Virus record (IMG/VR): IMGVR_UViG_3300023073_000003
Span: 4,944-68,943 of that record
DNA: 64,000 nt
Direction: 5' to 3' (one strand)
From: a virus
Lineage: Duplodnaviria; Caudoviricetes
The position numbers were made by a program, and so were the translations under genes. Positions 19,067 to 56,532 of the stretch are shown piece by piece; position 1 is the first letter of the stretch; every line of letters starts with the position of its first letter. Below the pieces are notes generated by a model. The model did no database searches. It had not been told where the DNA came from and saw only the letters and a program-made list of their open reading frames with translations.

Positions 19067-19100
19067 CTCCCCCGCCGTGCCACCGGCGGGGGAGTTTTTT
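19067..19100 (+). terminator. Rho-independent terminator at the convergence of the two arms
   Basis: perfect 11-bp stem CTCCCCCGCCG/CGGCGGGGGAG followed by T6. Confidence 0.9.
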
Positions 19101-22100
19101 ATTCCTCCTCGTCGGCGTACTCGGGTTCGCGCCTGCGCTGCTGACCCCCGCTATCGGCCTCCATGAAGATCAGCCATTCCTCCGGCGTCATCGACACGCC
19201 GTGCTCGCTCGTAGCCTGATCGAGGATGGTTGCCTGTAGCGAGCTTGCCAAATCCTCGGGCTCGATGGCGAGCTTTGAGATCGGCGCGCCGGGCACGCCA
19301 GCGATGCTCGCGGCCGATGCTTGATAGTCGTCGTAGCGCTTGACCCACGCCTCCATCGTATCGCTCGTGCTCTCCGGGCGCAGGATGATCCGCTTGAAGT
19401 CGTCGATGACCTTCTGCCGCGCATCCCCCGCGCGCTGCTGCCAGCCCTGCTTGGCACGATTAACATCACGCTGATCGGCCAGCCGGCTCGGCGTGAAACC
19501 CACCACCTGTCCGGCAAGTTCGCCCGGCGTGAAGTCCTCCATGATCTGCTTGCCGGTCACCGGCGAGCGCTCGCCCTCGCGCGCGAGACGCTTCGCGGTG
19601 AGCACGCCCCGGAACGCCGCCGGCACCAGCTTGGCGAAGCCCCGGTCAAAGTCGCCGCGCAGGAAGTCGTCGATGCTGGACACCATGTTCGACGAGCTCG
19701 ACAGGTGCGGCGACAGGTTGGCGTCGACCCAGTTGCGCACAGTCTCGGCCCATGTGTCACCCGACTTGGCGCCGCGCAGCCACAGCTGGTTCTGCGCCAG
19801 CCGGCTGCCGATGTCCCAGCCCGTCGCCTCCGACAGCGCGCCATGCTGAGCGATGCCCGTAGCCGCACCAAAATGCTGGGGTATCCACTCGTGGCGGAAA
19901 CGGTAATCGGCATCATCGGCACCCAGCGGGTCCTCGCGGCGGCGGCGGTCGTTTTCCTCTTTCGAGAAGAGGAACGGGTAGATCAGGTTGATCGCCTGCG
20001 TGACGAACGTGTAGCCGAACACGGAACCCAGCCCCGCGCCCGCCGCCTGAAACAACATGACGCTGGCAAGCTCGCCGAACAGCTGCTTGCGCGTCGCATA
20101 GGGTGAGCCGGCCGCCAGCGCGCGCACCGTCTGCCAGTAATATTTCTGGCGCTGCATCGAGTAGTTGCGCAGGAAGCCCAGCGCGCGCTTGCCCGCCGAT
20201 CCACGGAAGATGTCCGGGCGCTCCAGCGGGGTGAAGTTGCCCACCGTCTGCTCGGTGTCACGGACCGCCGACGCGACCGCGCCCGCGAACGCCTCCTCGT
20301 CGTTCTTCCCCTGCTTCTTCAGCTTCTCATATTCGAGTTCGGCGAAGGCCATGCCGGACGCCTCGCGCGCCAGCTGGTCGGCAGCCGTGAACGGTGCCGC
20401 CATGAGGTTGGCGACCTTACTCAGCATGTGCGTGGGGCCGCCCTCGCGCAGCCCCGACAGAGGGCCGAACGTCGTCTTCCACGACTGCAGCAAGCTGTCG
20501 GTCTGCTTATGCGAGAACAGGTCGCGCTTGTCGTTGAGCTCGGCCCAGAACCGGCGCCGCAGCGGGTTCTTCTTGACGTGGTCCGTGTTGCCCATCGACG
20601 GCGAGCGCAGCCACTTCTCGCCCGTCACCGGGTCGACCTCGATGAACGCCTTGATCGCGCCGGACCTCGGGAGCGACTGCGCCATCAGCCGTAGGACGTG
20701 CCCGGTATTGTAGCGCATCATCATGCGCGGCAGCACTTGGAACGGCAGCACCAGCGGCTGCACCACCGCCGACGCCATCGACGTCATCAGCGACGTGAAG
20801 GTCACCGCGCTGAGGATGCGCTCGCCCGTGCTCTGCTGCTGGACCTCCTCGGTCTCGCGCAGCCGGCGGACATAGTCGCGCGCCAGCATGTGCGCGTTGG
20901 CGTCCTTGGTCTGGTCGGCCGACTTGATCACCGTCGCCAGCGTCTCGATCTGGCGGTCGATCTGCTTGCCGTAGACCATCTTCGGCAGCGTGTTGGCGTA
21001 CTGCTGCGCGGTCGCGCGGAACACCAGCAGCGGGTCGGCGCTGTGGCCGGGCACGAACTCGGCGTGGATCAACTGCTTGCGGATTGAGCGCTCTGGCAAC
21101 GTCAGCAGGTACGACTGCCACATCACATCCTTGAGGCGATTGCGGAAGGCAGCGATCTCCTGCGGGCTGTCGCCGGTGATCGGGATGTTGTCGATCTTGG
21201 CGTTCAAATCATTGATCAGCTTGCCGTTCGACGAGATGCTATTGCGGATGTCGTCGAGCCCGTTGAGATGCTCGAAGCGGTCGGTGATCTCCGCCTCGGT
21301 CATGCCAGCCTTGCGCGCCTCGGCCTTCTTCGCCAGCGAGAATGCGTCACGCTTCGACGGCGTGTCGAAATGATAGCGCTCGCGGACGCTGTCGGGCTTC
21401 TTCGACCCCTTGATGATCAGCGCATAATCGCCGAAGCGCCGGAACGGGAAATACTCGGTCGGCAGTTCGTCGGTGCGCATCGACGGGTATTCCTCGTCGA
21501 ACTCGCTCTCGCCCTTGCCGTCGAGACCCTTCTTGAGCTTGGCTTTCTCGGCATCGCTGATGTCCAGCATGTCGATGATCGAGTGCTGCGTCGTCTGCAG
21601 CACCGCGTACATCTCCTTGTAGAACTGGCGCACCTTCACGTACTGCTCTTGCGCGCCCGGGAACTTGCCCAGCGCGTCCCACGCATCCCACACCGCGTTG
21701 ATCTTGTCGGTGCGGCGCTTCAGCACCCCCGTGGCCACGCCCTTGGTCGTGTACTTCGGGTCGGCCAGCTTGGCGGCGTAGCGCTTCATGACGGGGTCGT
21801 TGACCAGCGCGTCCGCGCGCGACGTGAAGTCGTGCACGCTATGGCGGTTGATGCGGGCAGTGGTGGTCATCGCGTGAAAGGCTTTCATGCCCTGCACGCC
21901 GATCTTGTTCTTGACCTTCTGGAACGCTGCGACCTTGCGGCTCATCGCCTTGCGCATCTGCGTCGCCATCGCGCGCTGCTTCTCGTGCAAGACTGTGATG
22001 CGGTCGAGCACCGCGCCGGCAGGCTTCGACAGCCGGCGCACCATCTCCTTGATCTCGGAGGTCGTCGTGAACGGCACGCGCGCCTGATATTGCCGGGTCG

Positions 22101-25100
22101 TGAAGCCGCTCACGCGCGCCTTGTTCATGTCGCTGCCTAGGTCGATCCAGCCCTTGGCTGCGCCCGTGAACCCCTGCCGGAACTCCTCGGCGTCGCTCGC
22201 CTGTTGCGCGCGCTGCGTGCCACGATTGATCTGCTGCACCGCTGTAGCTACGTCACCCGGCGCCGCGTCATTCGCCTCCTTCAGCAGTTCCGCCGGCGCG
22301 TTGATGAGCTTGGTGCCGGCACCCATCACGCGGTCGAGGATCGGATCGAGGTCGCTGCTGGCGCCCACGAACTTGCGCACCGCCGCGACGACACGGCGCC
22401 ACAGCGAATGCGGGCCGATCTTCTCCTTGGTGAGATACGCACGCATGCGCGGATCGGTGAACGTCCACGTCAGCAGTTCGTCCGCGTCGGCGAAGGCGTT
22501 GTTCTTACCGTCGACGAACTCCTGTTCGAGCTCGGTCAGCGGCGCGCCGCGCGCGATCTTGGCCTGCACATGCGCAGCCACATCCTCGAACGCGCGGATC
22601 AGCGCGCGGGCGTTGCGCGCCAGCGGCGTGCCGCGCGCGCCGCCGTTGCGGATATGGTGGATACCCCCCGACGTAACTGCGTGCAGCAACTCGTGCAGCA
22701 GCAGCCCGTGCGCCATGCCGGAGCGGCCGGTGACGTCGGCGCCGTGCAGGAACAGCCGGATCGGCGCGCCGCCCAGCGGCGCGTGCACGAGCCCGCGCGA
22801 CTGCGCCAGCAGGTCGTGGATCGCCAGCGGTGCGCCCTTGGGGAGCTCGTTCTCGCCCAGCACCTTGAAGTCGAACTTGATGCCGGCCTGCTCCATCCGC
22901 GCGAGTTGTCGGTACAGGCTCTCGGCGAGCACCCGCGTGGCCTCGTCGGGCGCGTTGTCGGCGGCCCAGCGCGCGGCCTGCCGCATGGTCTTGCCCTGCA
23001 GCGCCTCCTGCATCTTCGCGCCGAACGCGGGGTCCGGGTCCTCCGTGCTCTGGCTCGCGGTCGCGCGCCCCGCGCCGCGCGCGGCGAGCATCTCATCCAT
23101 CACATCGCGAACCCGCGCGACGCGCGCCGTCAGCGCACGCTGATACGCCGTCTCGGCCTTCTTGACCTCGGCCTGCACGGCAGCCTTCGCCTCGGCACCC
23201 TTGGTGCTGTTGGCCTTCTCGTAGGCAGCGTTGAGGTTGCGCTGCGCGAGTTCCTGCTCCTCCAGCGCGGTGCGTACGTCGCCGGTGAACTTGGCGCGGT
23301 CCTCCTTGGTCTCCGGCGTGCGCAGCAACTCGTGCAGCCGCCGCACCTCGCCAGCTTCGAGCTTGCGGTTCGTGCGGTGGGCCGCGATCTCCGTGCCCAA
23401 CTCCTGCTGCGCCAGCATGCCGGCGGCGGTGGCCTTCTTCTTGGCACCCATCGCCTTGCCCTGTGAACCCTTGTTCACGGCCTTGGGCTTCTCGGGCTCC
23501 TCCTCGGGCGGCGCCGTGGTCTCGACGTCGCCAACTTTCTTCCCCGCAGCAGCCTCAGCCTCGGCCGCGTCGAACGCCGCCTTGTCCGCGTCCCGCATCC
23601 TGCGCATGGCGCTGGCCTGCTCGGTGTGCGCAGCGACGTTGACCACCGCGCGCTCGCGCTTGGCCTCCCGCTCCACCTTGGCCTTCTCCACCTTGGCGGC
23701 ATGCCTCTGCGCGGCGGTCTGCGACTGCTCGGCGATCCGCGCGCGCTCCTGCTCGATAGGCTCACCACCGAACTGCAGGCGATAGTCGACGTCCTTGATA
23801 CCCTGCGTGACGCGCACGACGCCGACGTGCTCGCCATTGTCGAGCGCCATCATGCTCGCACGGTCACCCTCGCCGAACCCCACGACCTGATGCGGGACAC
23901 CGTTGATGCGGAGCACGACCTGCTCGGCGGGCTCCCCGCCGAGTGCCCGCGCCACCTCCTGACGCACCTGACTGTTCGCCGCCGCGCGCTCGGGCGTGGT
24001 CTTGGCGTTGAAGTCCTTGGGCTTGATCTCCAGCCGCGCCTCGGGGACCGGCGGCGCTTCCTCGACGGGCGCTTCCTCCTCGACCGGGGCTGCTTCCTCC
24101 TCGATCTTACCAGCAGTAAGGGGTGGCTCAGCCGCCTCCGCGAGCGCCGCCTGCATCACTTCGGGGTTGGGCTCGGATGGCGCCAATTCCGGCGCCTCGG
24201 CCTGCACAGGCGCTGCCTCGGGCTCGGAGGGTAGTTCGGTGACCTCCGGCGCTGCAGGGGCCTCCTGAGGCTCCTCAGCCGTTTCGGTGTACTCGACAGT
24301 ATGCGTCTTGCCTGCGGACGGGAAGGCGACCTTGCTGACGTTCAGCTTCACCTTCGGGTTCGCGAACTTGATCGTGCCGTTGTCGGCGATGTCCAGCACA
24401 TCATGCAGCTTGCCGCCCACCTCGATGCGCAGGGTGCCGCCGATCAGGGCGCCCTGAAGTTCTCCAAGCACACCCTCCTTGTCGGCATGCCCTTCCTGCG
24501 TGCTGGGATACAGCTTCATGAGATCGGCATGCGTCAGCACCTGCGGCGCGGGCGCGGCGGGCTCGGGCAGGGGCTCCGGTGCTGGCGTCGGCTCGGGCTC
24601 GGGTACGGCAGCAGCCTTGCGGGCGCGCGGCGGCTTGGCTGGTACGGGCGCAGCGACAGGCGTCGGCTCGACTTCGGGCAGCGCCTGCTGTGATAGCACC
24701 TCCGCGACGCTAGGCTCTCCCTCGACGACATTCGGGGAGGGGGTGCGTGCCTCTGGCGCCGGGGCAGCGGCGATGGGCTCCAGCGGCGGGGGGACCTCGG
24801 CAACCGGCGGTGCTTCCAGCATCTCGGCGGCGACCGGGGCGACTGGCTTCTGCTTGCCGCGCTTCTTGACCACGGGCTGCTCGACAGGCGCTTCCTGCTC
24901 CTGCTGCGTGATCGGCGGCGGGGGTGCTTCCTTGAGCCGCGCGCCGGCCTGCACGCCGTGGCGCTGGAGGAACTTGTCCAATGTCGAACCGGCCTCGAAC
25001 GTGCCGGCCGCGCTCTGGCGCTCGTACTCGGCATTGGCCGCGTCGATGGCCTCGACGGGCACGGCGCCCACCTTCTTGCGCATGTTCGCCTTGACGAGCG

Positions 25101-26589
25101 CGGAGGCCGTCTCGGGCGTCGACATGACATGCGGCGCGACCGGCGGCCCGCCCGTCACTGTCGCCGGGTTGGTGAGAGGCCCGTTAATACCGGGGGCTTG
25201 CCCCGGGTCGGGCTGGACCGTCTGCGCGGTCGGCGGCGCCTCACCTGTCGTATAGGTCGGTGGCGCGGCGGCCTGCGTGCCACCAGTCATCTGCATGATG
25301 GCGTTGCGCGCGGTGTCCTGATCGAACCCGTGCGCCTGCGCGAACGCCGTGACCTTCTCCTCGAACTCCGGCCCCTGCAGCGGCTGGTCACCCGCGACGT
25401 GCGCGGTCATAGCGTCGGCAGCCTTCTGGCGCTCGATCTCGGCGTTGCGCGCTTCGACGAGCGGCGCGAGCGTAGCAGCAAGCGGCTCGTGCGGCTCCTC
25501 GCCCTCGGCCGGCGCCGGGCGGCGCTTCTCCAGTTCTTCGAGCGTCGTGCGGAACGGCTGACCACTGGGGGCGCGCGCGATGACCTCGCCCTTTTCGGTC
25601 GGCGCGCTGAGGATGTCGAACGGCTGGACGACGGTCTCGCCCTTGATCTTGCGCTCGACCTCGACGGTATGCAGCGCCGGCGCCTCGCCGAACTGCTTGC
25701 GCGCGCCAGCAGCACTGTATGCTGTAGCGCCGTGCGCGACCGTGCCGAACACGCCACCACCCAGAATACCTGCGAGACCTGCCTCAGCCGACTCCATCAG
25801 CGACTGCTTGGTCAGCGGATTGGTGTGCCCAGCGCCTTGCTCGATGACGTTCTGGAGAACCTCGGTGACGCCCTCCTCGGCGCCGGTCTTGGCGATGTGC
25901 TTGAGCGCCGCGCCCATGCCCTTCTCAAAAATCTCGAACGCCGCATGCTTGCCCAAGCCGGCTGCCTGCCCGCCCAGACCCGTGTACATATCGAACGCGG
26001 TGCTCGCCGCCGCGCCGGCAAGGGCCGTCAGCGGATCGTCGACACCCTGCGCCTTCTGGCGCTCCTTGATACCCGAATAGGACTGCGGGCCGCTGGCGAG
26101 CCCCATCACCGCCATTGCAGCGTAGGGGTTCTTGGTCAGTAGCGCCGTGCCGGCAGCCGCGACTGTTGCAGGCGCGCCCTCGGCGGCGGTCTCGGCGATG
26201 GATGCCAGCCCGCCCATGAAGCCTTGGGAGTGCGCCCAGTCGGGCGTGGCACGCTGGCCTGCCCAGTCGGTGATGCCCTTGTCCGCACCGCGCAGCGCCT
26301 CGGCGGCGGGCGCGACCATCTTCTTGGCTTCCTCGGCGCTGTAGCCGACGAGCCTCGGTGCATCCTCCAGCGGGGTCGCCAGCCCGCCGATGATGTGTCC
26401 GACACCGCGCGTGAACGCACTGCCGAGAATGGCCGGCATGCTGCGCTCGGCTGGCGCAGCTTCGCGCGGCTGGAGCAGCTGCTTGGTGTCGTAACCACCA
26501 GCATGCAGGCGCTCCAGCAAGTCTTCCTTCGTCGTGCCAGCCGGCACGTTGTGGACGACAAAGCCGCTAGGCATTGTGACGTCGGGCAT
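19099..26589 (-). CDS. large internal virion/ejection protein (polyvalent-type, with a zincin-like HExxH motif)
   Basis: 2496 aa, last gene of the virion operon; LLHELLHAV motif; acidic Pro/Glu linker; helical C-terminal region. Confidence 0.8.
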   Translation of the reverse strand: MPDVTMPSGFVVHNVPAGTTKEDLLERLHAGGYDTKQLLQPREAAPAERSMPAILGSAFTRGVGHIIGGLATPLEDAPRLVGYSAEEAKKMVAPAAEALRGADKGITDWAGQRATPDWAHSQGFMGGLASIAETAAEGAPATVAAAGTALLTKNPYAAMAVMGLASGPQSYSGIKERQKAQGVDDPLTALAGAAASTAFDMYTGLGGQAAGLGKHAAFEIFEKGMGAALKHIAKTGAEEGVTEVLQNVIEQGAGHTNPLTKQSLMESAEAGLAGILGGGVFGTVAHGATAYSAAGARKQFGEAPALHTVEVERKIKGETVVQPFDILSAPTEKGEVIARAPSGQPFRTTLEELEKRRPAPAEGEEPHEPLAATLAPLVEARNAEIERQKAADAMTAHVAGDQPLQGPEFEEKVTAFAQAHGFDQDTARNAIMQMTGGTQAAAPPTYTTGEAPPTAQTVQPDPGQAPGINGPLTNPATVTGGPPVAPHVMSTPETASALVKANMRKKVGAVPVEAIDAANAEYERQSAAGTFEAGSTLDKFLQRHGVQAGARLKEAPPPPITQQEQEAPVEQPVVKKRGKQKPVAPVAAEMLEAPPVAEVPPPLEPIAAAPAPEARTPSPNVVEGEPSVAEVLSQQALPEVEPTPVAAPVPAKPPRARKAAAVPEPEPTPAPEPLPEPAAPAPQVLTHADLMKLYPSTQEGHADKEGVLGELQGALIGGTLRIEVGGKLHDVLDIADNGTIKFANPKVKLNVSKVAFPSAGKTHTVEYTETAEEPQEAPAAPEVTELPSEPEAAPVQAEAPELAPSEPNPEVMQAALAEAAEPPLTAGKIEEEAAPVEEEAPVEEAPPVPEARLEIKPKDFNAKTTPERAAANSQVRQEVARALGGEPAEQVVLRINGVPHQVVGFGEGDRASMMALDNGEHVGVVRVTQGIKDVDYRLQFGGEPIEQERARIAEQSQTAAQRHAAKVEKAKVEREAKRERAVVNVAAHTEQASAMRRMRDADKAAFDAAEAEAAAGKKVGDVETTAPPEEEPEKPKAVNKGSQGKAMGAKKKATAAGMLAQQELGTEIAAHRTNRKLEAGEVRRLHELLRTPETKEDRAKFTGDVRTALEEQELAQRNLNAAYEKANSTKGAEAKAAVQAEVKKAETAYQRALTARVARVRDVMDEMLAARGAGRATASQSTEDPDPAFGAKMQEALQGKTMRQAARWAADNAPDEATRVLAESLYRQLARMEQAGIKFDFKVLGENELPKGAPLAIHDLLAQSRGLVHAPLGGAPIRLFLHGADVTGRSGMAHGLLLHELLHAVTSGGIHHIRNGGARGTPLARNARALIRAFEDVAAHVQAKIARGAPLTELEQEFVDGKNNAFADADELLTWTFTDPRMRAYLTKEKIGPHSLWRRVVAAVRKFVGASSDLDPILDRVMGAGTKLINAPAELLKEANDAAPGDVATAVQQINRGTQRAQQASDAEEFRQGFTGAAKGWIDLGSDMNKARVSGFTTRQYQARVPFTTTSEIKEMVRRLSKPAGAVLDRITVLHEKQRAMATQMRKAMSRKVAAFQKVKNKIGVQGMKAFHAMTTTARINRHSVHDFTSRADALVNDPVMKRYAAKLADPKYTTKGVATGVLKRRTDKINAVWDAWDALGKFPGAQEQYVKVRQFYKEMYAVLQTTQHSIIDMLDISDAEKAKLKKGLDGKGESEFDEEYPSMRTDELPTEYFPFRRFGDYALIIKGSKKPDSVRERYHFDTPSKRDAFSLAKKAEARKAGMTEAEITDRFEHLNGLDDIRNSISSNGKLINDLNAKIDNIPITGDSPQEIAAFRNRLKDVMWQSYLLTLPERSIRKQLIHAEFVPGHSADPLLVFRATAQQYANTLPKMVYGKQIDRQIETLATVIKSADQTKDANAHMLARDYVRRLRETEEVQQQSTGERILSAVTFTSLMTSMASAVVQPLVLPFQVLPRMMMRYNTGHVLRLMAQSLPRSGAIKAFIEVDPVTGEKWLRSPSMGNTDHVKKNPLRRRFWAELNDKRDLFSHKQTDSLLQSWKTTFGPLSGLREGGPTHMLSKVANLMAAPFTAADQLAREASGMAFAELEYEKLKKQGKNDEEAFAGAVASAVRDTEQTVGNFTPLERPDIFRGSAGKRALGFLRNYSMQRQKYYWQTVRALAAGSPYATRKQLFGELASVMLFQAAGAGLGSVFGYTFVTQAINLIYPFLFSKEENDRRRREDPLGADDADYRFRHEWIPQHFGAATGIAQHGALSEATGWDIGSRLAQNQLWLRGAKSGDTWAETVRNWVDANLSPHLSSSSNMVSSIDDFLRGDFDRGFAKLVPAAFRGVLTAKRLAREGERSPVTGKQIMEDFTPGELAGQVVGFTPSRLADQRDVNRAKQGWQQRAGDARQKVIDDFKRIILRPESTSDTMEAWVKRYDDYQASAASIAGVPGAPISKLAIEPEDLASSLQATILDQATSEHGVSMTPEEWLIFMEADSGGQQRRREPEYADEEE

Positions 26590-40858: not shown

Positions 40859-41253
40859 TTCTTCTTGTTAAACCCTTTCAACGTCTCTGCGAAGCGTGCC
40901 CGCTGGCCGAGCTTCCCCGGTGCCTTGGCGGCCGTCGCGAGCGCCTTGGCGGGGATTTTTTTACCAGCGGGCACTCCCATCTGCGCGTGCAGCGCACCGG
41001 GCTTCTTGATCGCAGCCGAAATATCGAGGCTCCCGCCGGCGGCATATCCTTGCGCAAACGGGTTCCCGCCCTTGGGCTTGTCCTGCTTGAACGACGGGTC
41101 CTTACCGCCGGTAAGATTGCTCGGTTTGGCCTTACCCTTGACCGGCATCGAGTTCGGATCGCGGTCGGTCGGCTTCGTGCTGCGGACGAACGGATTGGTC
41201 TTCTTGCCACCCTTCGTCACGATGCCCATGCCACGCGAACTGCGCATCAGCAC
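40855..41253 (-). CDS. small basic head/core protein
   Basis: AIKKPGALH..MGVP.GKKIP...GKLGQRARFAETL; highly basic. Confidence 0.75.
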   Translation of the reverse strand: MLMRSSRGMGIVTKGGKKTNPFVRSTKPTDRDPNSMPVKGKAKPSNLTGGKDPSFKQDKPKGGNPFAQGYAAGGSLDISAAIKKPGALHAQMGVPAGKKIPAKALATAAKAPGKLGQRARFAETLKGFNKKK

Positions 41254-41257
41254 TCTC

Positions 41258-41584
41258 CTAGTTGCCGCGCGCGCCGCCCACCTGAATGATGGTCAGAGCG
41301 ACCGAGCCGGCGCCCGCCGTCTGGTTGAGCCGGATGCCGAGCACGAAATCCTGCAGCGCGCCAAGCTGGTTCGTCGACGCGCCGACGAGCGTGGCGATGG
41401 GGCACGGGAACCACGTCACGCCCGCCGCCGGCGGACGCAGCGGGTTGTCGAGCGTCACCTCGACCGAATAAGTCGCGGCGCCCGTCACGACCGCCTGCAG
41501 CGAGACGTTCGGCCAGCCATAGTAATCGTTGGTGGCCGCCGGGCTCGCCTGAACGGCGTTGGTCCTGAGGACTGTCGGTTGCAC
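41258..41584 (-). CDS. small beta-rich virion protein
   Basis: GTG start overlapping the upstream stop; IRLNQTAGAGSVALTIIQ.G end. Confidence 0.7.
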   Translation of the reverse strand: MQPTVLRTNAVQASPAATNDYYGWPNVSLQAVVTGAATYSVEVTLDNPLRPPAAGVTWFPCPIATLVGASTNQLGALQDFVLGIRLNQTAGAGSVALTIIQVGGARGN

Positions 41585-42549
41585 TAGCGCCTCCCTGCCT
41601 TGGTGTGCCCGCGCTTGGCGCAGCCGTCGATGCTGCCGCCCTTCGCATAGCACTTGGCCTTGGTCTTGCCGCGCACCTCGACACCACCGCCCTTGGCGTA
41701 ATTCGTGGGCGGCGTGAACGCCTTGCGGAGCTCATCATCCACCCGGTCGGATGGGGAGTTGAACTTCTTGGGCGGCGCAGCAGGACCGGACTTGGGTTTG
41801 GGCCTCCGGTCGATCTGGATGCCACCCCCGCCCCATGTCGTCGGCGGCTTGGCCGCGTCCGCGAGCATATCGTCCACCCGGTCGGATGGGGAGTTGTACT
41901 TCTTGAGCGGCTTCGGCACGGCGGTCGACGACGGCGGAGCACGGCGGTCGATCTGGATACCACCCCCGCCCCACGACGTCGGCGGCTTGGCCGCGTTCGC
42001 GAGCGCGTCATCCACCCGGTCGGATGGGGAGTTGAACTTCTTGGGCGGCCCCGCCTTGGCCGGTGGCCCGCTGACCCGCTTGTCGATCTTGATGCCCCCA
42101 TCGCCGCTCTTGGGCGGCGTGAACGCCTTCGCGAGTTCCGCATCCACCCTGTCGGAAGGCGAACTGAACTTCTTGGCCGCCGCAGGCTTCGGCTTCGACG
42201 AGCTCGCCTTGACGTCCTTGACGAGCGCGATCTTCGCCTGATCGACGGGCTCGCCAAACGCCTTGTACCCCGGCGACGGCTTGCCAGCCTTGGGGCCGAG
42301 CACCGAGGCATCGGCACCACCAGAGCCCTTGAACGAGGTGCCTGCAGCCGGCTGGGGTTTCGGCTTGGGCTTCGCCTTGGGCGCGTCGGACGCCATGTTG
42401 GCCTTGAACTGCTTGCCGTTCCAGCTAAAGTTCGAGCCCTTGCCCTTGCCACCGTCGTAGGCCGCACGGAACGCCTCGGCGAAGGTCTCCTTCTTCGCCG
42501 GCGGGTCGTTCTTGACGATGTCGCCCATCCCTTGGTCGGGCTCAGCCAT
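41584..42549 (-). CDS. basic Lys/Pro-rich protein with four ~45-aa repeats
   Basis: KKFNSPSDRVDD repeats; GAGGAGG RBS before ATG 42549. Confidence 0.75.
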   Translation of the reverse strand: MAEPDQGMGDIVKNDPPAKKETFAEAFRAAYDGGKGKGSNFSWNGKQFKANMASDAPKAKPKPKPQPAAGTSFKGSGGADASVLGPKAGKPSPGYKAFGEPVDQAKIALVKDVKASSSKPKPAAAKKFSSPSDRVDAELAKAFTPPKSGDGGIKIDKRVSGPPAKAGPPKKFNSPSDRVDDALANAAKPPTSWGGGGIQIDRRAPPSSTAVPKPLKKYNSPSDRVDDMLADAAKPPTTWGGGGIQIDRRPKPKSGPAAPPKKFNSPSDRVDDELRKAFTPPTNYAKGGGVEVRGKTKAKCYAKGGSIDGCAKRGHTKAGRR

Positions 42550-42559
42550 GGCTACCTCC

Positions 42560-43036
42560 TCAGCAAATCTTGCACTTGGTCTTGCCGCGCTTGGCAACGC
42601 CATCGATGGAGCCGCCCTTGGCGAAACCACCGATCTTGCTTGGGCTCGCTTTGGGCTTCAGCTTCGTCGAAGAGAGCGGCTTGCCGCCGGTGGCACCCTT
42701 CTTGAACGGCGTGAAACCGCCCTTGTCGCCGCCAGCGCCCTTCTTGAACGGCACGAACCCGCCCTTGCGCATGCCCGGAGGCGGAGGCGGCGCGCCGGCG
42801 CCCATCGGGGGCGGCGGAGGCATGCCCGGAGGCCCACCGGGAGGCGGACCACCCGGAGGCCCACCCGGAGGCGGCGCCATGCCGCCCAGCGGAGGCGGAG
42901 GGACCGTGCCGGGGGGCATCGGGGGCTTGGGTGGCATCGGGGGCGTCGGAGGCTTCGGAGGACCTCCAGCGGCCGCCATCTCAGGCGGTGGCGCACCCGG
43001 CATACCGGGACCGGGAGGCGGGGGCGGCATCGGCAT
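42560..43036 (-). CDS. Pro/Gly-rich low-complexity basic protein
   Basis: polyproline N-terminal half; C-terminus FAKGGSIDGVAKRGKTK shared with the next gene; AAGGAG RBS. Confidence 0.7.
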   Translation of the reverse strand: MPMPPPPPGPGMPGAPPPEMAAAGGPPKPPTPPMPPKPPMPPGTVPPPPLGGMAPPPGGPPGGPPPGGPPGMPPPPPMGAGAPPPPPGMRKGGFVPFKKGAGGDKGGFTPFKKGATGGKPLSSTKLKPKASPSKIGGFAKGGSIDGVAKRGKTKCKIC

Positions 43037-50502: not shown

Positions 50503-51018
50503 ATGCCTAGCAAACCATTACCCTCCCCTGCGTACCTGCACAAGCGGCTGCGCTATGAGCCGTCGACGGGCAAGCTGTACTGGCGCGCGTATGCCGGCAT
50601 GCCACAGAAGTGGATCACGAAGTGGGCCGGCAAGGAAGCGCTCGCCTGCAACAAAGCCGGCTATCGATGCGGGAGGATCGACAACGTTCTCGTGCGCGCA
50701 CACCGTGTCATTTGGGCGATGGTGACGGGGGCGTGGCCGGCAGGCGAGGTTGACCATCAGGATCACGACCGCGCGAACAACCGCATCCGCAACCTGCGCG
50801 TCACTGATGACGTAGGCACAGCCCGTAACCAAACGCGCCATAAGGATAATACCAGCGGTGTGATGGGGGTCGACTACGTCAAGCGGGATCAGCTGTGGCG
50901 CGCGCGGATCGGTAGGAGGACCTGCCTTGGCACTTTCCATACCTTCAGTGAAGCCGTGGTGGCCCGCCGCGCCGCCGAGCGCGCGCACGGCTACCACCCG
51001 AACCACGGCACTCAGTAG
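50503..51018 (+). CDS. HNH-AP2 homing endonuclease, antisense insertion between terL and portal
   Basis: LRYEPSTGKLYW, AHRVIW, VDHQDHDRANNRIRNLR, NTSGVMGV...WRARI. Confidence 0.9.
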   Translation: MPSKPLPSPAYLHKRLRYEPSTGKLYWRAYAGMPQKWITKWAGKEALACNKAGYRCGRIDNVLVRAHRVIWAMVTGAWPAGEVDHQDHDRANNRIRNLRVTDDVGTARNQTRHKDNTSGVMGVDYVKRDQLWRARIGRRTCLGTFHTFSEAVVARRAAERAHGYHPNHGTQ

Positions 51019-52535
51019 TAACCCCGAGACCGGTTCGAACGAAAGTACTCAATCTCCTCCGGCTCATCCATGGTTGTGCCGACATACCCGCCCTGCCGGA
51101 AGCGATGCAGGGCCATGGACACACAGTCCACCATGTCGTCATGACGCCCTGCCGGAAACTCCGCGACCTCGTCCATGACTTCCTCGGCCCAGCGGGTGGG
51201 CGGCGCCCACACGCGGCCGCTGGCGAAGATGTCTGCGACCGCATTGAGCCGGCTAATCTTGTCGTTGCCACGTACTGGGGTGAAGCTGGACACCGGGATG
51301 CCTGCCGCACGCATCTCGTAGATGAGCGGCGCGCCGCTGGCCTTGGCCTCCACGATCATCGCATCCGGCGCCCACTCGCGATACTCCTCCATCGCGCGCT
51401 GTTTCAGCTGCGGGAACTCCATGCGGTCGCGAAAGGCATTGAGTAGGATGATATTCGCCACCTTGAGGCCGGTGGTCTCGTCGTCACGATAGAACACGCC
51501 CCACGTCAGGAAAGCGCTATAGTCGGCGCGGTTATGTTTCTCGAACGCGGTGTCGAGGGTCATCAGGATGAACTCGCACGCCGGCGGGTCGCGCTTCTCC
51601 CACATCTGCCACCACTCGCGCTTGACGATGGCCGCGCTGTCGCTCGTCGGGTCCTGTTGGTACTGCGCCATCCACTTGGAATTAGGGATGTCGCGCTTGA
51701 CCTTGAGGAGCTCCTCCACACTCCAAAATGCAGGCCAAACAGGGTTGCCGCTCGGCAGGATCGCCGGGAACTGGATGACCTCCCACTCGTCGATACTGTC
51801 GTTCTGGATCGCATCGTCGAGAATGCGGCCCACGATGTCGCGCTTACTCCAGCGTGTGCAGACGATGATGATGGCCCCGCCCGGCTGCAAGCGCTGGCGC
51901 GGGCCGGAGGTGTACCACTCGAACGTCTTGTCGAACACATCCGGATTGCTCTCGGCGAGCGCCGCTTCTTGCTCACTGTGCGCGTCATCGATGATCAGCA
52001 GGTCCGCGCCCTTGCCGCTGACGGCACCACCGACGCCGATGGCGAAGTAGGTGCCTTCCTTGCTGGTATTCCAGCGACCGGCGGCCTTGCTATCGGTCGC
52101 GAGCGCAAGGTTCGGGAAGATGTCGTGGTAACCGGGCGTGTCGACCAAGTTCCTAACTTTGCGGCCAAACCCGACTGCGAGCTCGGCGGTGTGGCTGGCC
52201 TGAATGACCTTCTTGTCGGGAAACTGCCCGAGGAACCAAGCAGGGAGCAAGTAGCTGGCGAACTCCGACTTCGTGTGGCGCGGGGGCATACACACGATCA
52301 AGCGCTTGAGCTCGCCACGCGCCACGCGCTCGAACGCCTCCGCGATTTTCAAATGGTGGCGCCCCGAGATGAAGCTCGGCCACATCGCCTCGACGAACAG
52401 GATGAACGAGCGCCGCGCGCCCTCGCGGCGCTTGAGCTCCTCCAGCTTCGCCAGTTCCGCGAGCAGGAACTCCTGCTCGGCTGGGGACAAGCGGTGGAGT
52501 ATCTTGGGGATGTCCTTGAGGGACAGATCAGCCAT
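51012..52535 (-). CDS. terL: terminase large subunit
   Basis: RLIVCMPPRHTKS, LLIIDD, YQQDP, DTAF.K...DYSA, HDDMVD. Confidence 0.95.
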   Translation of the reverse strand: MADLSLKDIPKILHRLSPAEQEFLLAELAKLEELKRREGARRSFILFVEAMWPSFISGRHHLKIAEAFERVARGELKRLIVCMPPRHTKSEFASYLLPAWFLGQFPDKKVIQASHTAELAVGFGRKVRNLVDTPGYHDIFPNLALATDSKAAGRWNTSKEGTYFAIGVGGAVSGKGADLLIIDDAHSEQEAALAESNPDVFDKTFEWYTSGPRQRLQPGGAIIIVCTRWSKRDIVGRILDDAIQNDSIDEWEVIQFPAILPSGNPVWPAFWSVEELLKVKRDIPNSKWMAQYQQDPTSDSAAIVKREWWQMWEKRDPPACEFILMTLDTAFEKHNRADYSAFLTWGVFYRDDETTGLKVANIILLNAFRDRMEFPQLKQRAMEEYREWAPDAMIVEAKASGAPLIYEMRAAGIPVSSFTPVRGNDKISRLNAVADIFASGRVWAPPTRWAEEVMDEVAEFPAGRHDDMVDCVSMALHRFRQGGYVGTTMDEPEEIEYFRSNRSRGYY

Positions 52536-52797
52536 GGTTGATCGGGTCGCGCATCAGCAGGATGATCTCCTGCAGCAGCCCGACCTGCGCGAACGACTTG
52601 AAGCTGCCGGCCTGCATGTAGCCCGTGGTCGAACCCTTCAAGCTGTCCTCATCATCGCTGTAGACGATGATGAGATGCTTGGGGCTGATCTCGCCCGACT
52701 TGAGGCGCTGGAGGAATATCTCGACGGCATCGACGGGGGCATGGCTGGACGGCTTGCCGTCGCTCTTTTCCCAGCGCTTGCGAGCGATGTCATTCAT
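52528..52797 (-). CDS. small hypothetical protein between terS and terL
   Basis: ATG 52797 overlapping the upstream stop region. Confidence 0.6.
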   Translation of the reverse strand: MNDIARKRWEKSDGKPSSHAPVDAVEIFLQRLKSGEISPKHLIIVYSDDEDSLKGSTTGYMQAGSFKSFAQVGLLQEIILLMRDPINHG

Positions 52798-53527
52798 CGA
52801 AGGGGGAGCTCCAGTCGAAGTCGGGGCTGTCGTCGGGGTCTTCTTCGACACCCTCGCAGAGCTCGGGCGGTTCCTGCCAGACGGCAAGGTCCTGCGCCGG
52901 CGCCGGCGGGGGCACGTCGACGTAACTCGCGAGCTCGATCTCCTCCTCATCGTCGTCATCGTCGGGGAACACCATCTCCTCCGACGCGACATGGGTCAGG
53001 GAGAGCAGGCGCTTGACGCGCTCCTTGATCGCCTGCTCCAAGCCTTCGCTCGTCGTGTAGTTGATGTTGATCTCGCTGCGCTCGGTGAACAGGCTGATGT
53101 CCGAGTGCTTGCCTAGGAGTTCGATGGCCTTGAGCTCGTAGCGCGCGTCGCCGCAGTCGGCGAGCTCAATCAGCTTGTTGGTCAGCGCGGTGCGGACTTG
53201 GACGACGTCCATGGCGAGGGAGGAGCCGTATGTGGCGAGGAAGGACGACACCGCGCGCGCCGCGACCGGGTGGTGGGCGAGCGGGCTGATCTTACCGCTG
53301 GTAAGGGCGTCCTTGAGGATGCGCTTCTCCTCGTCGAAATCCTCTTGGCTCATGTCCGGCGGCGGGCGCTTGCGTTTGAGGAACTCGGTGGCGTGCGCGG
53401 TGGCGCTGGTCACGGAGAGCTCATCGAGGGTGGAGGTGGGCTCGCGGGCGCGCGCGTCGCCTTCCGGGTCGTACGGCAGCGGATGGTCGCTGGTCGGCTT
53501 GAGCTTGACGGTGCGCTGGCGGGCCAT
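52790..53527 (-). CDS. terS: probable terminase small subunit
   Basis: position upstream of terL; ELKAIELLGKHSDISLFTERSEI motif; start at 53527. Confidence 0.65.
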   Translation of the reverse strand: MARQRTVKLKPTSDHPLPYDPEGDARAREPTSTLDELSVTSATAHATEFLKRKRPPPDMSQEDFDEEKRILKDALTSGKISPLAHHPVAARAVSSFLATYGSSLAMDVVQVRTALTNKLIELADCGDARYELKAIELLGKHSDISLFTERSEININYTTSEGLEQAIKERVKRLLSLTHVASEEMVFPDDDDDEEEIELASYVDVPPPAPAQDLAVWQEPPELCEGVEEDPDDSPDFDWSSPFDE

Positions 53528-53545
53528 AGAGGGCGTGTGTAGCTC

Positions 53546-53577
53546 AAAAAAATCCCCGCCGGAAGACCGGCGGGGAT
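53546..53577 (-). terminator. Rho-independent terminator closing the tRNA/PEP-CTERM cassette
   Basis: stem ATCCCCGCCGG/CCGGCGGGGAT followed by T7 on the - strand. Confidence 0.9.
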
Positions 53578-53613
53578 CAGGCTCATGCGCGGCAGCGCAT
53601 GGATTGGCTTGCC

Positions 53614-54159
53614 TTACGGACGCGCCAGCCGGCTTGCGCTCGGGCGCGAGCGCGTCCGTGCAAAGGCGCCGGCGGCACCGAAGCCGACCAGCATGAGCGC
53701 CCAAGTCGCTGGTTCCGGCACGGGCGGCGTGTTGACACTGAGGATGCTGATCTCGGCGGCGCTGAACGGTCCGGCATTGTTCACCTGAGAGGCGACCGCA
53801 CCGATGGAGAAGGGCGTCGGCGGAAAGACAGCCGACCAGTCGAGCCCGGTCGTGAAGTCCAAGGTGAACGAGCCGAAATCCAGATCGAAGCCCGTGCCGC
53901 TGAAACTGTTGGCGATGGGCGTACTGGCCACGGGGATGGCGTTGATGCTGGCGCTGAACGTGTTCAGGATCGGCTGCGTGGGGGACAGCGCGTTGAAGCT
54001 GAAGCTAAGCACGCGGTTCGAGCCACTGAGGGCCGTGCCGAACGTACCGGGCGCCCACGTCAGGATGCCGGAGATGATGAAGGTCTTGGTCGCGGCCGCC
54101 GGCGCGGAGGCAAGCGCTAGGCTCGCGAGCGCGGCAAGGGCAAGGAAGAATTTGCGCAT
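53614..54159 (-). CDS. secreted PEPxxWA-CTERM (exosortase-sorted) surface protein
   Basis: signal peptide MRKFFLALAALASLALASAPAAA; C-terminal VPEPATWALMLVGFGAAGAFARTRSR; GAGGG RBS. Confidence 0.9.
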   Translation of the reverse strand: MRKFFLALAALASLALASAPAAATKTFIISGILTWAPGTFGTALSGSNRVLSFSFNALSPTQPILNTFSASINAIPVASTPIANSFSGTGFDLDFGSFTLDFTTGLDWSAVFPPTPFSIGAVASQVNNAGPFSAAEISILSVNTPPVPEPATWALMLVGFGAAGAFARTRSRPSASRLARP

Positions 54160-54268
54160 GGTGTTGGTCCCCTCGTTGGTACTGCGGCCAGCATTTGGGA
54201 CTGGGGGTCGGGCGGGCCGACCGCAGCAGCCGTGCATAACACGACCGCTGCGGTGCAGCTAGAGACGC

Positions 54269-54415
54269 TTATTCGGCGTCGTCGGTTGCGTCACCCTCTT
54301 CGGTGTCGTCGGCCGGCGCATCGGCATCGGGCTCGGGCGTGGGCTCCGGGTCGATCTGCGCGGTTGCGGCAACGGCATCTTCGGCTTCGACAGCAGTGTT
54401 CTCGGTCTCGCCCAT
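54269..54415 (-). CDS. 48-aa hyper-acidic peptide (not in ORF track)
   Basis: GGAGG RBS; MGETENTAVEAEDAVAATAQIDPEPTPEPDADAPADDTEEGDATDDAE*. Confidence 0.7.
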   Translation of the reverse strand: MGETENTAVEAEDAVAATAQIDPEPTPEPDADAPADDTEEGDATDDAE

Positions 54416-54504
54416 GATCAGGTCCTCCGTGGGGTTTGAACGCCTCGAATGAAGCGCGGTCCGGCATGTGTTGCATGGGCGCGGGGTGGGCGCAAGGGGG
54501 TCCG

Positions 54505-54581
54505 TGGCGGCCCTGACAGGACTCGAACCTGTGGCCCTCAGTTTAGGAAACTGTCGCTCTGTCCTGCTGAGCTACAGGGTC
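54505..54581 (-). tRNA. tRNA-Arg(CCT)
   Basis: 77 nt; TAGCTCAG...GGA D-arm with A20, anticodon loop TT-CCT-AA, GGTTCGAGTCC T-arm, encoded CCA; mismatches at 2:71 and 27:43. Confidence 0.92.
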
Positions 54582-54594
54582 GTGCCACGAACTG

Positions 54595-54626
54595 AAAAGG
54601 GGTCGGACGCTTGCACGCCCGACCCC
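54595..54626 (-). terminator. hairpin with GCAA tetraloop and TTTT just upstream of the tRNA
   Basis: - strand GGGGTCGGGCGT-GCAA-GCGTCCGACCCC-TTTT. Confidence 0.6.
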
Positions 54627-54801
54627 TCCATTAGCCGGTTCAAGCGAGACCCCCGGAGGAGATGAAGCTGAGCGCTGCCAATAACCCCTAGTGGCATAGC
54701 CGTTTGAGGCTGGTCAATAGGGAAAATTTCGCTAGGGTGGCGGGGCAGGTAGCGTGTCGAGCGCCGGCCTGCCCCTAGCATGGTCTCAGGAGGACCCGCC
54801 T

Positions 54802-55323
54802 ATGAAACCCTTACCCTCGCCCGCGTACCTGCACAAGCGCCTGCGTTATGTGCCGTCGACCGGCAAGCTCTACTGGAAGCACTACCCACCGCACGGGGTG
54901 TCGTGGAACGCGCGCTGCGCGGGCAAGGAGGTGTGCTGCACCTTCAACAGCAACGGATACCCGTGCCTCAAGATCGACCGCGTGAAGCGCCCGATGCACC
55001 GCATCATCTGGGCGATGGTCACCGGCCGCTGGACGGTGAAGCCGCTCGACCATCAGGACCACGACAAGTCGAACAATCGCATCCGCAACCTACGGGTCAC
55101 CACGCACCTCGGCAATGTCCGTAACCAGAAGCTGAATGTGGCCAACACGAGCGGCGTGTCGGGGGTCGTTTGGCATGCCCGTGACCAACGGTGGTTTGCC
55201 CGCATCGGGAACGGGAAAGAGGTGATCCACCTTGGGTCCTACGTGCGCTTCGAGGACGCGGTCGCTAGGCGCCGGCGCGCTGAGGTGAAATACGGATACC
55301 ACGAGAACCACGGGTCCTCCTAG
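54802..55323 (+). CDS. HNH-AP2 homing endonuclease (paralog of 50503..51018)
   Basis: KPLPSPAYLHKRLRY.PSTGKLYW shared; MHRIIW, LDHQDHDKSNNRIRNLR, NTSGVSGV; GGAGG RBS. Confidence 0.9.
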   Translation: MKPLPSPAYLHKRLRYVPSTGKLYWKHYPPHGVSWNARCAGKEVCCTFNSNGYPCLKIDRVKRPMHRIIWAMVTGRWTVKPLDHQDHDKSNNRIRNLRVTTHLGNVRNQKLNVANTSGVSGVVWHARDQRWFARIGNGKEVIHLGSYVRFEDAVARRRRAEVKYGYHENHGSS

Positions 55324-55668
55324 GTTCCATTGACGGGGGGTCTCCCTAATAGCGGAGGGGTAGTATCCCCGGATTTATAATAATGATCATCGAATGTGCA
55401 AAACACTAATAAGGGGGCGCGCGCGGGAACCTAACTCACAGCTGCCCCCCTGCCCCCCGGTGGGTTGCGCAGCCTTACCGACGGTAAGGACCCCCTCCCC
55501 CCTCCTAGCCTATTGAAAACACACGATAATTCTACCCCTCTTGCTATTAGTAACGTATCTATAGCAGAGAAGGGTTGCCGGAAGGGAGACATCCTTCCGG
55601 TAGCGGGATTTCCCCGCAACCCTCCCTCCGCCTAGCGGACCGGGTTTTGACATCGTTGGAGAAGTGAA
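55324..55668. promoter_or_regulatory. non-coding divergence region between the arms (possible genome end/pac and early promoters)
   Basis: 345-nt gap with AT-rich patches, G/C runs, inverted repeats and one CTTAC-N5-GTAAG site. Confidence 0.55.
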
Positions 55669-56532
55669 ATGGCTACCAAGCCAACACCTAAGCTCTCGTC
55701 AAAGACTGACGCGAACTACAAGACTTTGCTTGTTGCGCAGGCAAAGATCGAAGCCCAAATTGCGGCTGCAGCTGAGAAGCTGGAAGCCGAGGGCAAGGGC
55801 GAGACTGAGACTGTCTCGCCGGTCGACGCCAAGGCGGCCAAGGCCAAGGCTGCGGCCAAGGTCAAGGCGGAAGATGCGGCCGCAAAAGCGGCGCGCAAGG
55901 ATGCCGACGCCAAGGCCAAGGCGGCCAAGGATGAGGTCGCCAAATCCGAGGAGCAGCGCGAGCGCGACATGGATGAGGCGGAAGTCTCGGAAATGCGCGA
56001 CATGGCGCGCAAGCTGAATAGCTTGAGCAAGGCCATGGCGAACTACGCGGCCGATACCAAGCGGACGCTGATGAGCCGGGGTGCGTTGGGCGTCATGCTC
56101 AACAACGACCTCTCGCCACAGCTGAAGGCAATCCCGCGCCTCGCGGGGCTGCACTGGACGGACGTCAATTCCAAGAATGCCGATTGCGAGGCGATGAAGG
56201 TCCTCCTGACCAACATCGAGAACCATCGCAAGGCATACGTGGACATCTACGTCACTCCGCAGGAGGACATCGGCTACAAGGGTGGCACGAAGAATGCCAG
56301 CTACAAGTCGTGGTCCGACATGCGGACGCTCGCCAAGAAGCTGGACGGGTTCGCCCCTCCGCCGCGCGATCCGAAGCCGCTCGTGACCAAGGTCAAGGTC
56401 GACCTGACCAAGCTGTATCGGGCAGGGCAGGTCGCAGGGTTAAGCCCCAAGATCGACAAGGCGATTGCCGACATCGGCAAAATCCTTCGGGACCTTGGCG
56501 TCGACCTCAGCGAGTTGACCAAGAGCGTCTGA
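55669..56532 (+). CDS. first early gene; Lys/Ala-rich hypothetical protein
   Basis: GGAGA RBS; KAAKAKAAAK segment; own terminator. Confidence 0.8.
   Translation: MATKPTPKLSSKTDANYKTLLVAQAKIEAQIAAAAEKLEAEGKGETETVSPVDAKAAKAKAAAKVKAEDAAAKAARKDADAKAKAAKDEVAKSEEQRERDMDEAEVSEMRDMARKLNSLSKAMANYAADTKRTLMSRGALGVMLNNDLSPQLKAIPRLAGLHWTDVNSKNADCEAMKVLLTNIENHRKAYVDIYVTPQEDIGYKGGTKNASYKSWSDMRTLAKKLDGFAPPPRDPKPLVTKVKVDLTKLYRAGQVAGLSPKIDKAIADIGKILRDLGVDLSELTKSV

Follow-up and report, generated by a model that had tools for sequence, protein, structure and literature searches.

A phage-encoded PEPxxWA-CTERM protein as a candidate substrate of a host exosortase

A gene for a 181-aa protein (P0001) with a PEPxxWA-CTERM sorting tail is carried inside a genuine, complete phage genome. 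The window, that is, the whole stretch of 64,000 nucleotides that was analysed, corresponds to bases 4944-68943 of an IMG/VR virus record; this record is 68,943 bp long and, according to CheckV, 100% complete. In agreement with the preliminary description, no exosortase was found in the complete phage genome (no match to PF09721), and because the phage lacks this enzyme, processing of the protein would need that of the host. With moderate confidence, we read the product as a functional phage accessory protein: Sec would export it, its C-terminal helix would anchor it, and the host exosortase V (XrtV), the only enzyme known to read this tag, would pass it to the cell surface or the exopolysaccharide (EPS) layer. 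The most likely host of the phage is an alphaproteobacterium with XrtV, either from the Sphingomonadales or of the Phenylobacterium type.

Table. Features of the PEP-gene locus, in positions of the window
Feature	Position	Strand	Basis
Large terminase (TerL)	51012..52535	-	2,740 matching phage records, annotated terminase large subunit
245-aa gene, downstream boundary, small-terminase position	52790..53527	-	tblastn hits in L002-L012; no PHROG match
Intrinsic terminator: 12-bp stem (9 G-C), 4-nt loop, run of T's	53546..53578	-	Terminator scan
CDS, PEPxxWA-CTERM protein P0001 (stop codon included)	53614..54159	-	ORF list and translation; NF035944 44.8 bits; PF07589 31.3 bits; GC3 0.846
Sorting tail, residues 147-181: VPEPATWA, TM helix LMLVGFGAAGAFA, basic cluster RTRSR...R	53617..53721	-	NF035944, AF2
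Passenger, residues 24-146, Ser/Thr/Phe-rich, all-beta, predicted small meander beta-barrel	53722..54090	-	AF2
Signal peptide, residues 1-23 (MRK, hydrophobic core, APAAA/TK)	54091..54159	-	Sequence reading; AF2 helix 2-15
Shine-Dalgarno GAGGGGA	54168..54174	-	Sequence reading; last G of the GAGGGG core 9 nt upstream of ATG
Long hairpin, 16 + 4 bp, in the 109-nt leader between acidic mini-ORF and PEP gene	54216..54259	-	RNA fold
Hyper-acidic 48-aa ORF, cargo island, upstream of PEP gene	54269..54415	-	ORF list; no PHROG match
tRNA-Arg(CCT), cargo island, upstream of PEP gene	54505..54581	-	ARAGORN; Rfam RF00005 58 bits
HNH(-AP2) homing-type endonuclease, divergent, cargo island	54754..55323	+	phrog_99 E 3e-53

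The protein is the exact translation of the listed reading frame, as had been described at the outset; the span then given for the locus, 53546-54159, is right for the protein, but its lower bound also covers the 3' UTR and the terminator. A longer ORF on the minus strand (54237..53614) holds an internal ATG at 54159, which is the start of the 181-aa protein, and the same N-terminal start is found in 30 of 30 aligned homologues. The frame is coding, since its GC3 falls in the range of the phage's other genes (0.78-0.92 in the confirmed ones), and its codon adaptation to the confirmed genes is ordinary and does not distinguish it from phage genes. The N-terminus, read by eye, consists of MRK, 15 hydrophobic residues and APAAA followed by TK, and by inspection it has the appearance of a type-I signal peptide, consistent with the Sec signal peptide recognized earlier and with a helix at residues 2-15 of the AlphaFold2 model. 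The composition of the protein is A31 S23 F17 L17 P16 T16; the passenger is rich in Ser, Thr and Phe, as in the preliminary description, and is all-beta, with nine strands in the model.

Assignment of the tail, for which a check against profile models had been proposed, is confirmed by these models. NF035944 (PEPxxWA-CTERM) matches residues 147-170 over all 24 model positions with an E-value of 8e-12, its score exceeding the curated cut-off of 35 bits, and the scores of PF07589 (gathering cut-off 20.7) and of TIGR02595 (19.6 bits, cut-off 16) are likewise above threshold. In a six-frame scan of the whole 69-kb genome, NF035944 recovered the PEP gene as the only site (47.3 bits, E 2e-13), and in none of 14 control genomes scanned in the same way did it exceed its cut-off. 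The PEP motif lies 34 residues before the stop, within the range of 25-45 seen in 81 other tails, and is followed by the transmembrane helix and then by the RTRSR basic cluster at the extreme C-terminus. In alignment A1, P148, E149, P150, W153, G159 and G164 are invariant. The protein does not belong to the FxDxF family, as NF038126 gave 27.3 bits of the 50 needed with an alignment limited to the tail (residues 141-170), and the passenger motif is FDLDF/FTLDF, not FxDxF.

Bacterial tails of this kind were located by back-translated tail patterns, and the best 80 of hundreds of genome sites were distributed among Sphingomonadales (46), Phenylobacterium/Caulobacteraceae (20), unclassified (alpha)proteobacteria (11) and other groups (3); thus, the expectation that such tails occur mainly in Sphingomonadales and Caulobacterales holds for 66 of these best 80 matches. 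An exosortase is present in all five tested genomes with similar tails, and in the four classified ones (Sphingomonas metalli, Sphingobium boeckii, Phenylobacterium sp. Root700 and Glacieibacterium frigidum) exosortase V (NF035943) was found with 338-387 bits against a cut-off of 313. The distribution of XrtV is sporadic: among 61 evenly sampled genomes of the Sphingomonas order, five have a match at E<=1e-60, and three are above the cut-off. Because the tails span two orders and XrtV is sporadic, the tail points to an XrtV-positive alphaproteobacterial genotype in either of two orders and not to one order, so that the original proposal that it predicts the host order cannot be maintained. The complete tRNA-Arg of the phage was also considered for host assignment and set aside, since its best identity among 401 sampled alphaproteobacterial genomes is 88%, which gives no host signal; two of the sampled genomes (G087 and G287) are unpublished, and none of the present claims depends on them.

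Tails of this type are not peculiar to this phage. A strict DNA pattern, PEPxxWA[ML][ML]xxGFG, occurs in at least 119 IMG/VR stretches, and 80 of these, when fetched, yielded 81 matching ORFs, every one with a true C-terminal tail; a signal-peptide-like start is present in 67 of 82 tailed proteins (the 81 ORFs and L001). Of 42 larger records, six have direct terminal repeats (DTRs) and are 100% complete. PHROG matches identify three of the DTR records as phages: G010 encodes a virion protein and an ejection protein, G011 a DNA polymerase and a helicase, and G033 portal, TerL and head closure proteins; PF05065 and PF03354 had no match in 11 IMG/VR records, a result that is uninformative, since PHROGs show that G010, G011 and G033 are phages. 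The passengers of the other phage-borne tails are all unrelated to that of the 181-aa protein. Thus, it is the signal and the architecture that recur across phages, not the gene, and the presence of the same architecture in complete DTR phage genomes of unrelated lineages argues for selection. The preliminary description had considered such proteins atypical of phages; with at least 119 IMG/VR stretches and six complete DTR genomes, their rarity was overstated. No paper with phage-encoded PEP-CTERM proteins as its topic was found in the literature, apart from one passing mention in a preprint on Dehalococcoides mobile elements, and phage carriage of PEPxxWA genes is under-described in print and common in viral metagenomes, and not unique.

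One of these phages, G011 (IMGVR_UViG_3300044982_000010, a 64-kb DTR genome), has a distantly related replication module in the same order (loci L307-L310), with identities to the present phage of 36% for the polymerase, 35% for the helicase, 23% for the primase and 26% for the exonuclease. Two of its proteins exceed 2,100 aa, and its own PEPxxWA gene, with an unrelated passenger, is situated where the plus- and minus-strand modules meet.

The combination of a cleaved signal peptide, a beta domain, a transmembrane helix and a basic tail would by default give a type-I membrane protein, and the tail could be a mere C-terminal anchor that holds a periplasmic protein in the inner membrane independently of any exosortase, for example, to block DNA injection by other phages or to modulate lysis. 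We consider this unlikely, even though the phage encodes no exosortase and XrtV occurs in a minority of the sampled Sphingomonas-order genomes. The XrtV-associated model is matched at every position, including PEP, W, A and GFG, whereas a generic anchor would need none of these to be conserved, and the recurrence of the identical tail type on many phage genes with unrelated passengers suggests that the signal itself is selected.

The PEP gene is a separate unit, with its own Shine-Dalgarno site and a strong terminator, beginning 36 nt past the stop codon, that insulates it from the terminase operon. At the position of the terminator, Rfam gave sub-threshold matches to terminator-bearing sRNAs; above threshold, only the tRNA was found. 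For the 126-nt stretch with the leader, the RNA fold has an energy of -51.1 kcal/mol (z -3.0), equalled by 1 of 200 shuffles, and the long hairpin of the leader, which has no T-run behind it, could act in processing, stability or attenuation. A scan of 52400-55800 for sigma-70 consensus promoters found none, and no sigma-54 element is visible by eye upstream of the PEP gene. Two further elements upstream of the tRNA-Arg were seen by eye and not listed by the consensus scan: a terminator-like hairpin just upstream of it (54595-54626 on the minus strand, 11-bp stem followed by TTTT) and, roughly 65 nt beyond it in the same direction, a promoter-like TTGACC-N11-GCTATGCC of the Caulobacter type (54717-54693 on the minus strand), which is only a lead.

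On its downstream side, the PEP gene is bordered by the 245-aa gene. In the nearest relatives this gene is conserved next to TerL, on the upstream side, and it therefore occupies the small-terminase position; its tblastn homologues in L002-L012 always lie directly 5' of TerL. L002 (71%), the closest of the TerL relatives that extend far enough upstream, shows neither a PEP-CTERM gene nor a tRNA nor a detected HNH homologue ahead of its terS-like gene, about 130 nt upstream of which a divergent gene starts. Moreover, a PEP-CTERM tail was found in none of 80 TerL-related IMG/VR loci, which is partial evidence, as many of these loci are short. From these two observations, we interpret the region 53528-55668 as a cargo island of 2.1 kb that is specific to this phage and contains the tRNA-Arg, the acidic mini-ORF, the PEP gene and the HNH gene. 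With its own terminator and its absence at the same position in the related phage L002, the PEP gene is built like a moron. Another HNH(-AP2) endonuclease ORF lies antisense between portal and TerL (50503-51018, plus strand), and these two HNH ORFs are possibly homing cassettes that help to move cargo. The 254-nt gap between the 245-aa gene and TerL is covered by the C-terminal approximately 89 aa of ORF 52528-52992 (region 52528-52797, minus strand), an ORF that shares 8 nt with the start of TerL; its C-terminal part is probably a small gene that is translationally coupled to TerL.

Sequence relatives of the passenger are very few. Among 1.84 billion representatives, only P0038 (179 aa; E 7e-32) is strongly related over the full length, with 49% identity, and it is accompanied by the fragment P0039; both stem from JGI metagenomes, and a passenger-only search returned just these two as significant. 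P0038, when scanned against viral, metagenome and genome collections, gave matches at the level of the tail only. Several hundred proteins of about 180 aa, for example, the PEPxxWA-CTERM protein WP_221714231.1 of Sphingobium xanthum, align end to end with 30-40% identity, the significant signal being confined to the signal peptide and the tail. Passenger matches of phmmer to the giant proteins P0073 and P0040 were rejected as summed weak 25% matches to VCBS/cadherin-like tandem repeats. In GenBank phages, tblastn with the whole protein or the tail alone found no match, in a search in which the low-complexity filter may mask the tail and which therefore speaks only weakly for absence. The exact 181-aa protein is on record from two contigs and several sources.

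The gene might be neutral or decaying cargo, a recently acquired host PEPxxWA gene of which the phage makes no use. It was found in none of the 80 TerL relatives, it shares its island with a homing endonuclease and a tRNA, and its passenger has no known function, all of which would fit such an origin. Nevertheless, this reading is quite improbable: the ORF, the signal peptide, the tail, the Shine-Dalgarno site and the terminator are all intact, and the phage-like codon use indicates that the capture was not very recent or that donor and phage were alike in composition. Furthermore, libraries of 5.8 billion and 1.84 billion proteins contain no near-identical bacterial donor, the best match being 49% identical.

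A model of the protein obtained with AlphaFold2 from a 48-sequence alignment has a pLDDT of 85.9 and a pTM of 0.71, with a pLDDT of about 90 across residues 30-110 of the passenger. The nine strands span residues 26-142, and the transmembrane helix spans residues 150-169. Foldseek found no match to the model at E<=0.001 in PDB or BFVD, and the ESM Atlas returned PEP-CTERM clusters only, together with a low-confidence model. The best VIA-align hits (Z 7.8; AttH C-terminal barrel, de novo barrels and the OmpA transmembrane domain) are at the background level of that tool and were discarded. The predicted passenger thus resembles a generic small meander beta-barrel without an assignable fold family. 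A small and otherwise featureless passenger behind a canonical tail is also what would be expected of a decoy, an abundant phage substrate that saturates XrtV and thereby blocks maturation of the host's PEPxxWA surface proteins. This is very unlikely, since the passenger is predicted to fold confidently and is 49% conserved with P0038, and a pure decoy would need neither.

The gene content of the genome is that of a phage. Between 19.1 and 53.5 kb, the minus strand has the genes for the large terminase and portal, for a capsid/protease-like protein, for a virion structural protein and for a protein of 2,496 aa. On the plus strand are those for DNA polymerase, exonuclease, helicase and primase-helicase, together with genes for an ATPase and for HNH endonucleases. 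The pelagiphages HTVC023P/027P, Planktothrix phage Pag-Yong1 and phage DSL-LC04 have TerL proteins with about 50% identity to that of the present phage. Neither a tyrosine integrase nor a serine recombinase/resolvase was found in the complete genome, and the phage looks virulent.

Several observations on the record itself may be added. The 2,496-aa protein (19099-26589, minus strand) matches only the C-terminal part of phrog_11358, which has 3,431 positions and unknown function (E 1e-13). The long ORF 41247-42467 on the minus strand has a GC2 of 0.80 and a GC3 of 0.575, the reverse of real genes, and is probably not the coding frame; the overlapping 41584-42630 on the same strand may be the real gene. 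Both contig ends (bases 1-200 and 68744-68943) lie within arrays of small paralogous genes, and the last four bases of the contig, GGTA, equal the first four, with no terminal repeat found. The record may be a circularly permuted genome that was cut at an arbitrary point.

An assembly artefact or a piece of host DNA, introduced by a chimeric join or at a prophage edge, is highly improbable as the source of the gene. The record is classed in IMG/VR as linear without end repeats, and a tRNA lies 350 bp away, tRNAs being common attachment sites; yet phage genes occur within 100-600 bp on both sides of the PEP gene (the terS-position gene and TerL on one side, HNH on the other), and beyond the HNH gene there are a further 10 kb of phage genes, including the ATPase and a second HNH gene. 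Throughout the locus, GC content and codon use stay uniform, the genome is complete and lacks an integrase or resolvase, and the complete tRNA is at most 88% identical to any of the 401 sampled genomes. The chimera or host-DNA reading, raised at the outset as what would overturn the assignment, was therefore rejected because of the uniform GC and codon use, the flanking phage genes and the record of the exact protein on two contigs. The unimolecular spanin of phage T1, gp11, has an N-terminal export signal, a beta-rich periplasmic domain and a C-terminal transmembrane helix, and a lysis protein of this kind, to which the overall topology of the 181-aa protein is similar, can be excluded because the protein has no cysteine and thus neither a lipobox nor an outer-membrane lipid anchor, in addition to which no lysis genes are adjacent and the tail is a specific exosortase signal.

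To our knowledge, exosortase-mediated cleavage has been demonstrated biochemically for no PEPxxWA protein. In the reading that we prefer, a phage accessory protein handed to the host's sorting machinery, the domain architecture suggests that Sec would export the product, that the signal peptide would be cut after Ala23, and that the C-terminal helix would then hold the protein in the inner membrane with its basic tail in the cytoplasm. According to the PEP-CTERM/exosortase model (PMC1569441), host exosortase V, assumed to be present, would recognize VPEPATWA and remove the anchor, and the beta-barrel passenger of roughly 120 residues would be passed to the cell surface or the exopolysaccharide layer. 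The likeliest benefit, which is the most speculative step, might be an altered envelope of the infected cell, by analogy with T5 Llp; this would block further adsorption (superinfection exclusion or protection of progeny from debris) or change aggregation. Surface remodelling or superinfection exclusion by the 181-aa protein is something that we purely infer. Since the phage has no integrase, any benefit must arise during lytic growth, which leaves less time for remodelling of the envelope to matter.

If host XrtV does process the protein, a phage protein would enter the surface or EPS of a Sphingomonas- or Phenylobacterium-type cell by means of an enzyme that the phage does not carry. Exosortases would then join Sec, lipoprotein and sortase pathways as host sorting routes exploited by phages, and the protein would offer a small, portable test substrate for the poorly understood exosortase V system. 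The tag would narrow the host of an uncultured phage to the XrtV-carrying minority of alphaproteobacteria. What gives the finding its value is the class and not this single locus, because IMG/VR has at least 100 others. A wider proposal, which we put forward as a tentative and still doubtful one, is that phages of exosortase-bearing bacteria routinely deliver interchangeable small passengers to the surface or slime layer via a host-matched C-terminal tag; no description of such a general use of host exosortases by phages was found in the literature. If it were true, the tag would be a mechanism of envelope takeover in lytic infection and, in addition, a marker of host genotype that can be read from sequence.

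Several known systems are instructive for comparison. The lipoproteins Llp of T5 and Cor are phage envelope proteins that block receptors by way of host sorting signals. Like them, the 181-aa protein is a small accessory product of a phage and bears a sorting signal of the host type, and the two could serve as a functional analogy for a role in exclusion or progeny protection; similarity in sequence and fold is absent, and they use a lipobox and the Lol pathway, whereas the present protein uses an exosortase signal. PepA of Zoogloea, to which further PEP-CTERM floc proteins are related, is, according to the citation in PMC12642866, an exosortase-dependent small secreted protein that is tied to EPS and aggregation. 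The 181-aa protein is not a member of this flocculation protein family, since NF033554 gave 19.3 bits against a cut-off of 80, and the exosortase class is also different.

Another is the PEP-CTERM/EpsH exosortase system described by Haft et al. in 2006 (PMC1569441), as a model that is itself unproven biochemically. Its substrates share with the phage protein the C-terminal PEP motif, transmembrane helix and basic cluster, the N-terminal signal peptide and a passenger that is diverse and shows little homology, and also the organization as a single-gene unit behind a sizeable intergenic leader; the differences are that no sigma-54-type element is seen by eye here and that the gene resides in a virus instead of an EPS locus. 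The bacterial NF035944 proteins that occur with XrtV, such as WP_221714231.1, have the same signal peptide, small all-beta passenger and VPEPxxWAxMLxGFG tail with basic cluster, are about 180 aa in size and in many cases are 30-35% identical to the 181-aa protein over the full length. In contrast to them, the gene described here is encoded by a phage without an exosortase, and its passenger is significantly related to two metagenomic proteins only.

Other phage-borne PEPxxWA genes in IMG/VR have the same signal-plus-tail build and encode small proteins (median about 214 aa); those of G010, G011 and G033 reside in complete phage genomes that carry portal, TerL, ejection-protein or DNA-polymerase genes. 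While 18 of the 42 larger tail-bearing records have an integrase and 10 are proviruses, the present phage has no integrase.
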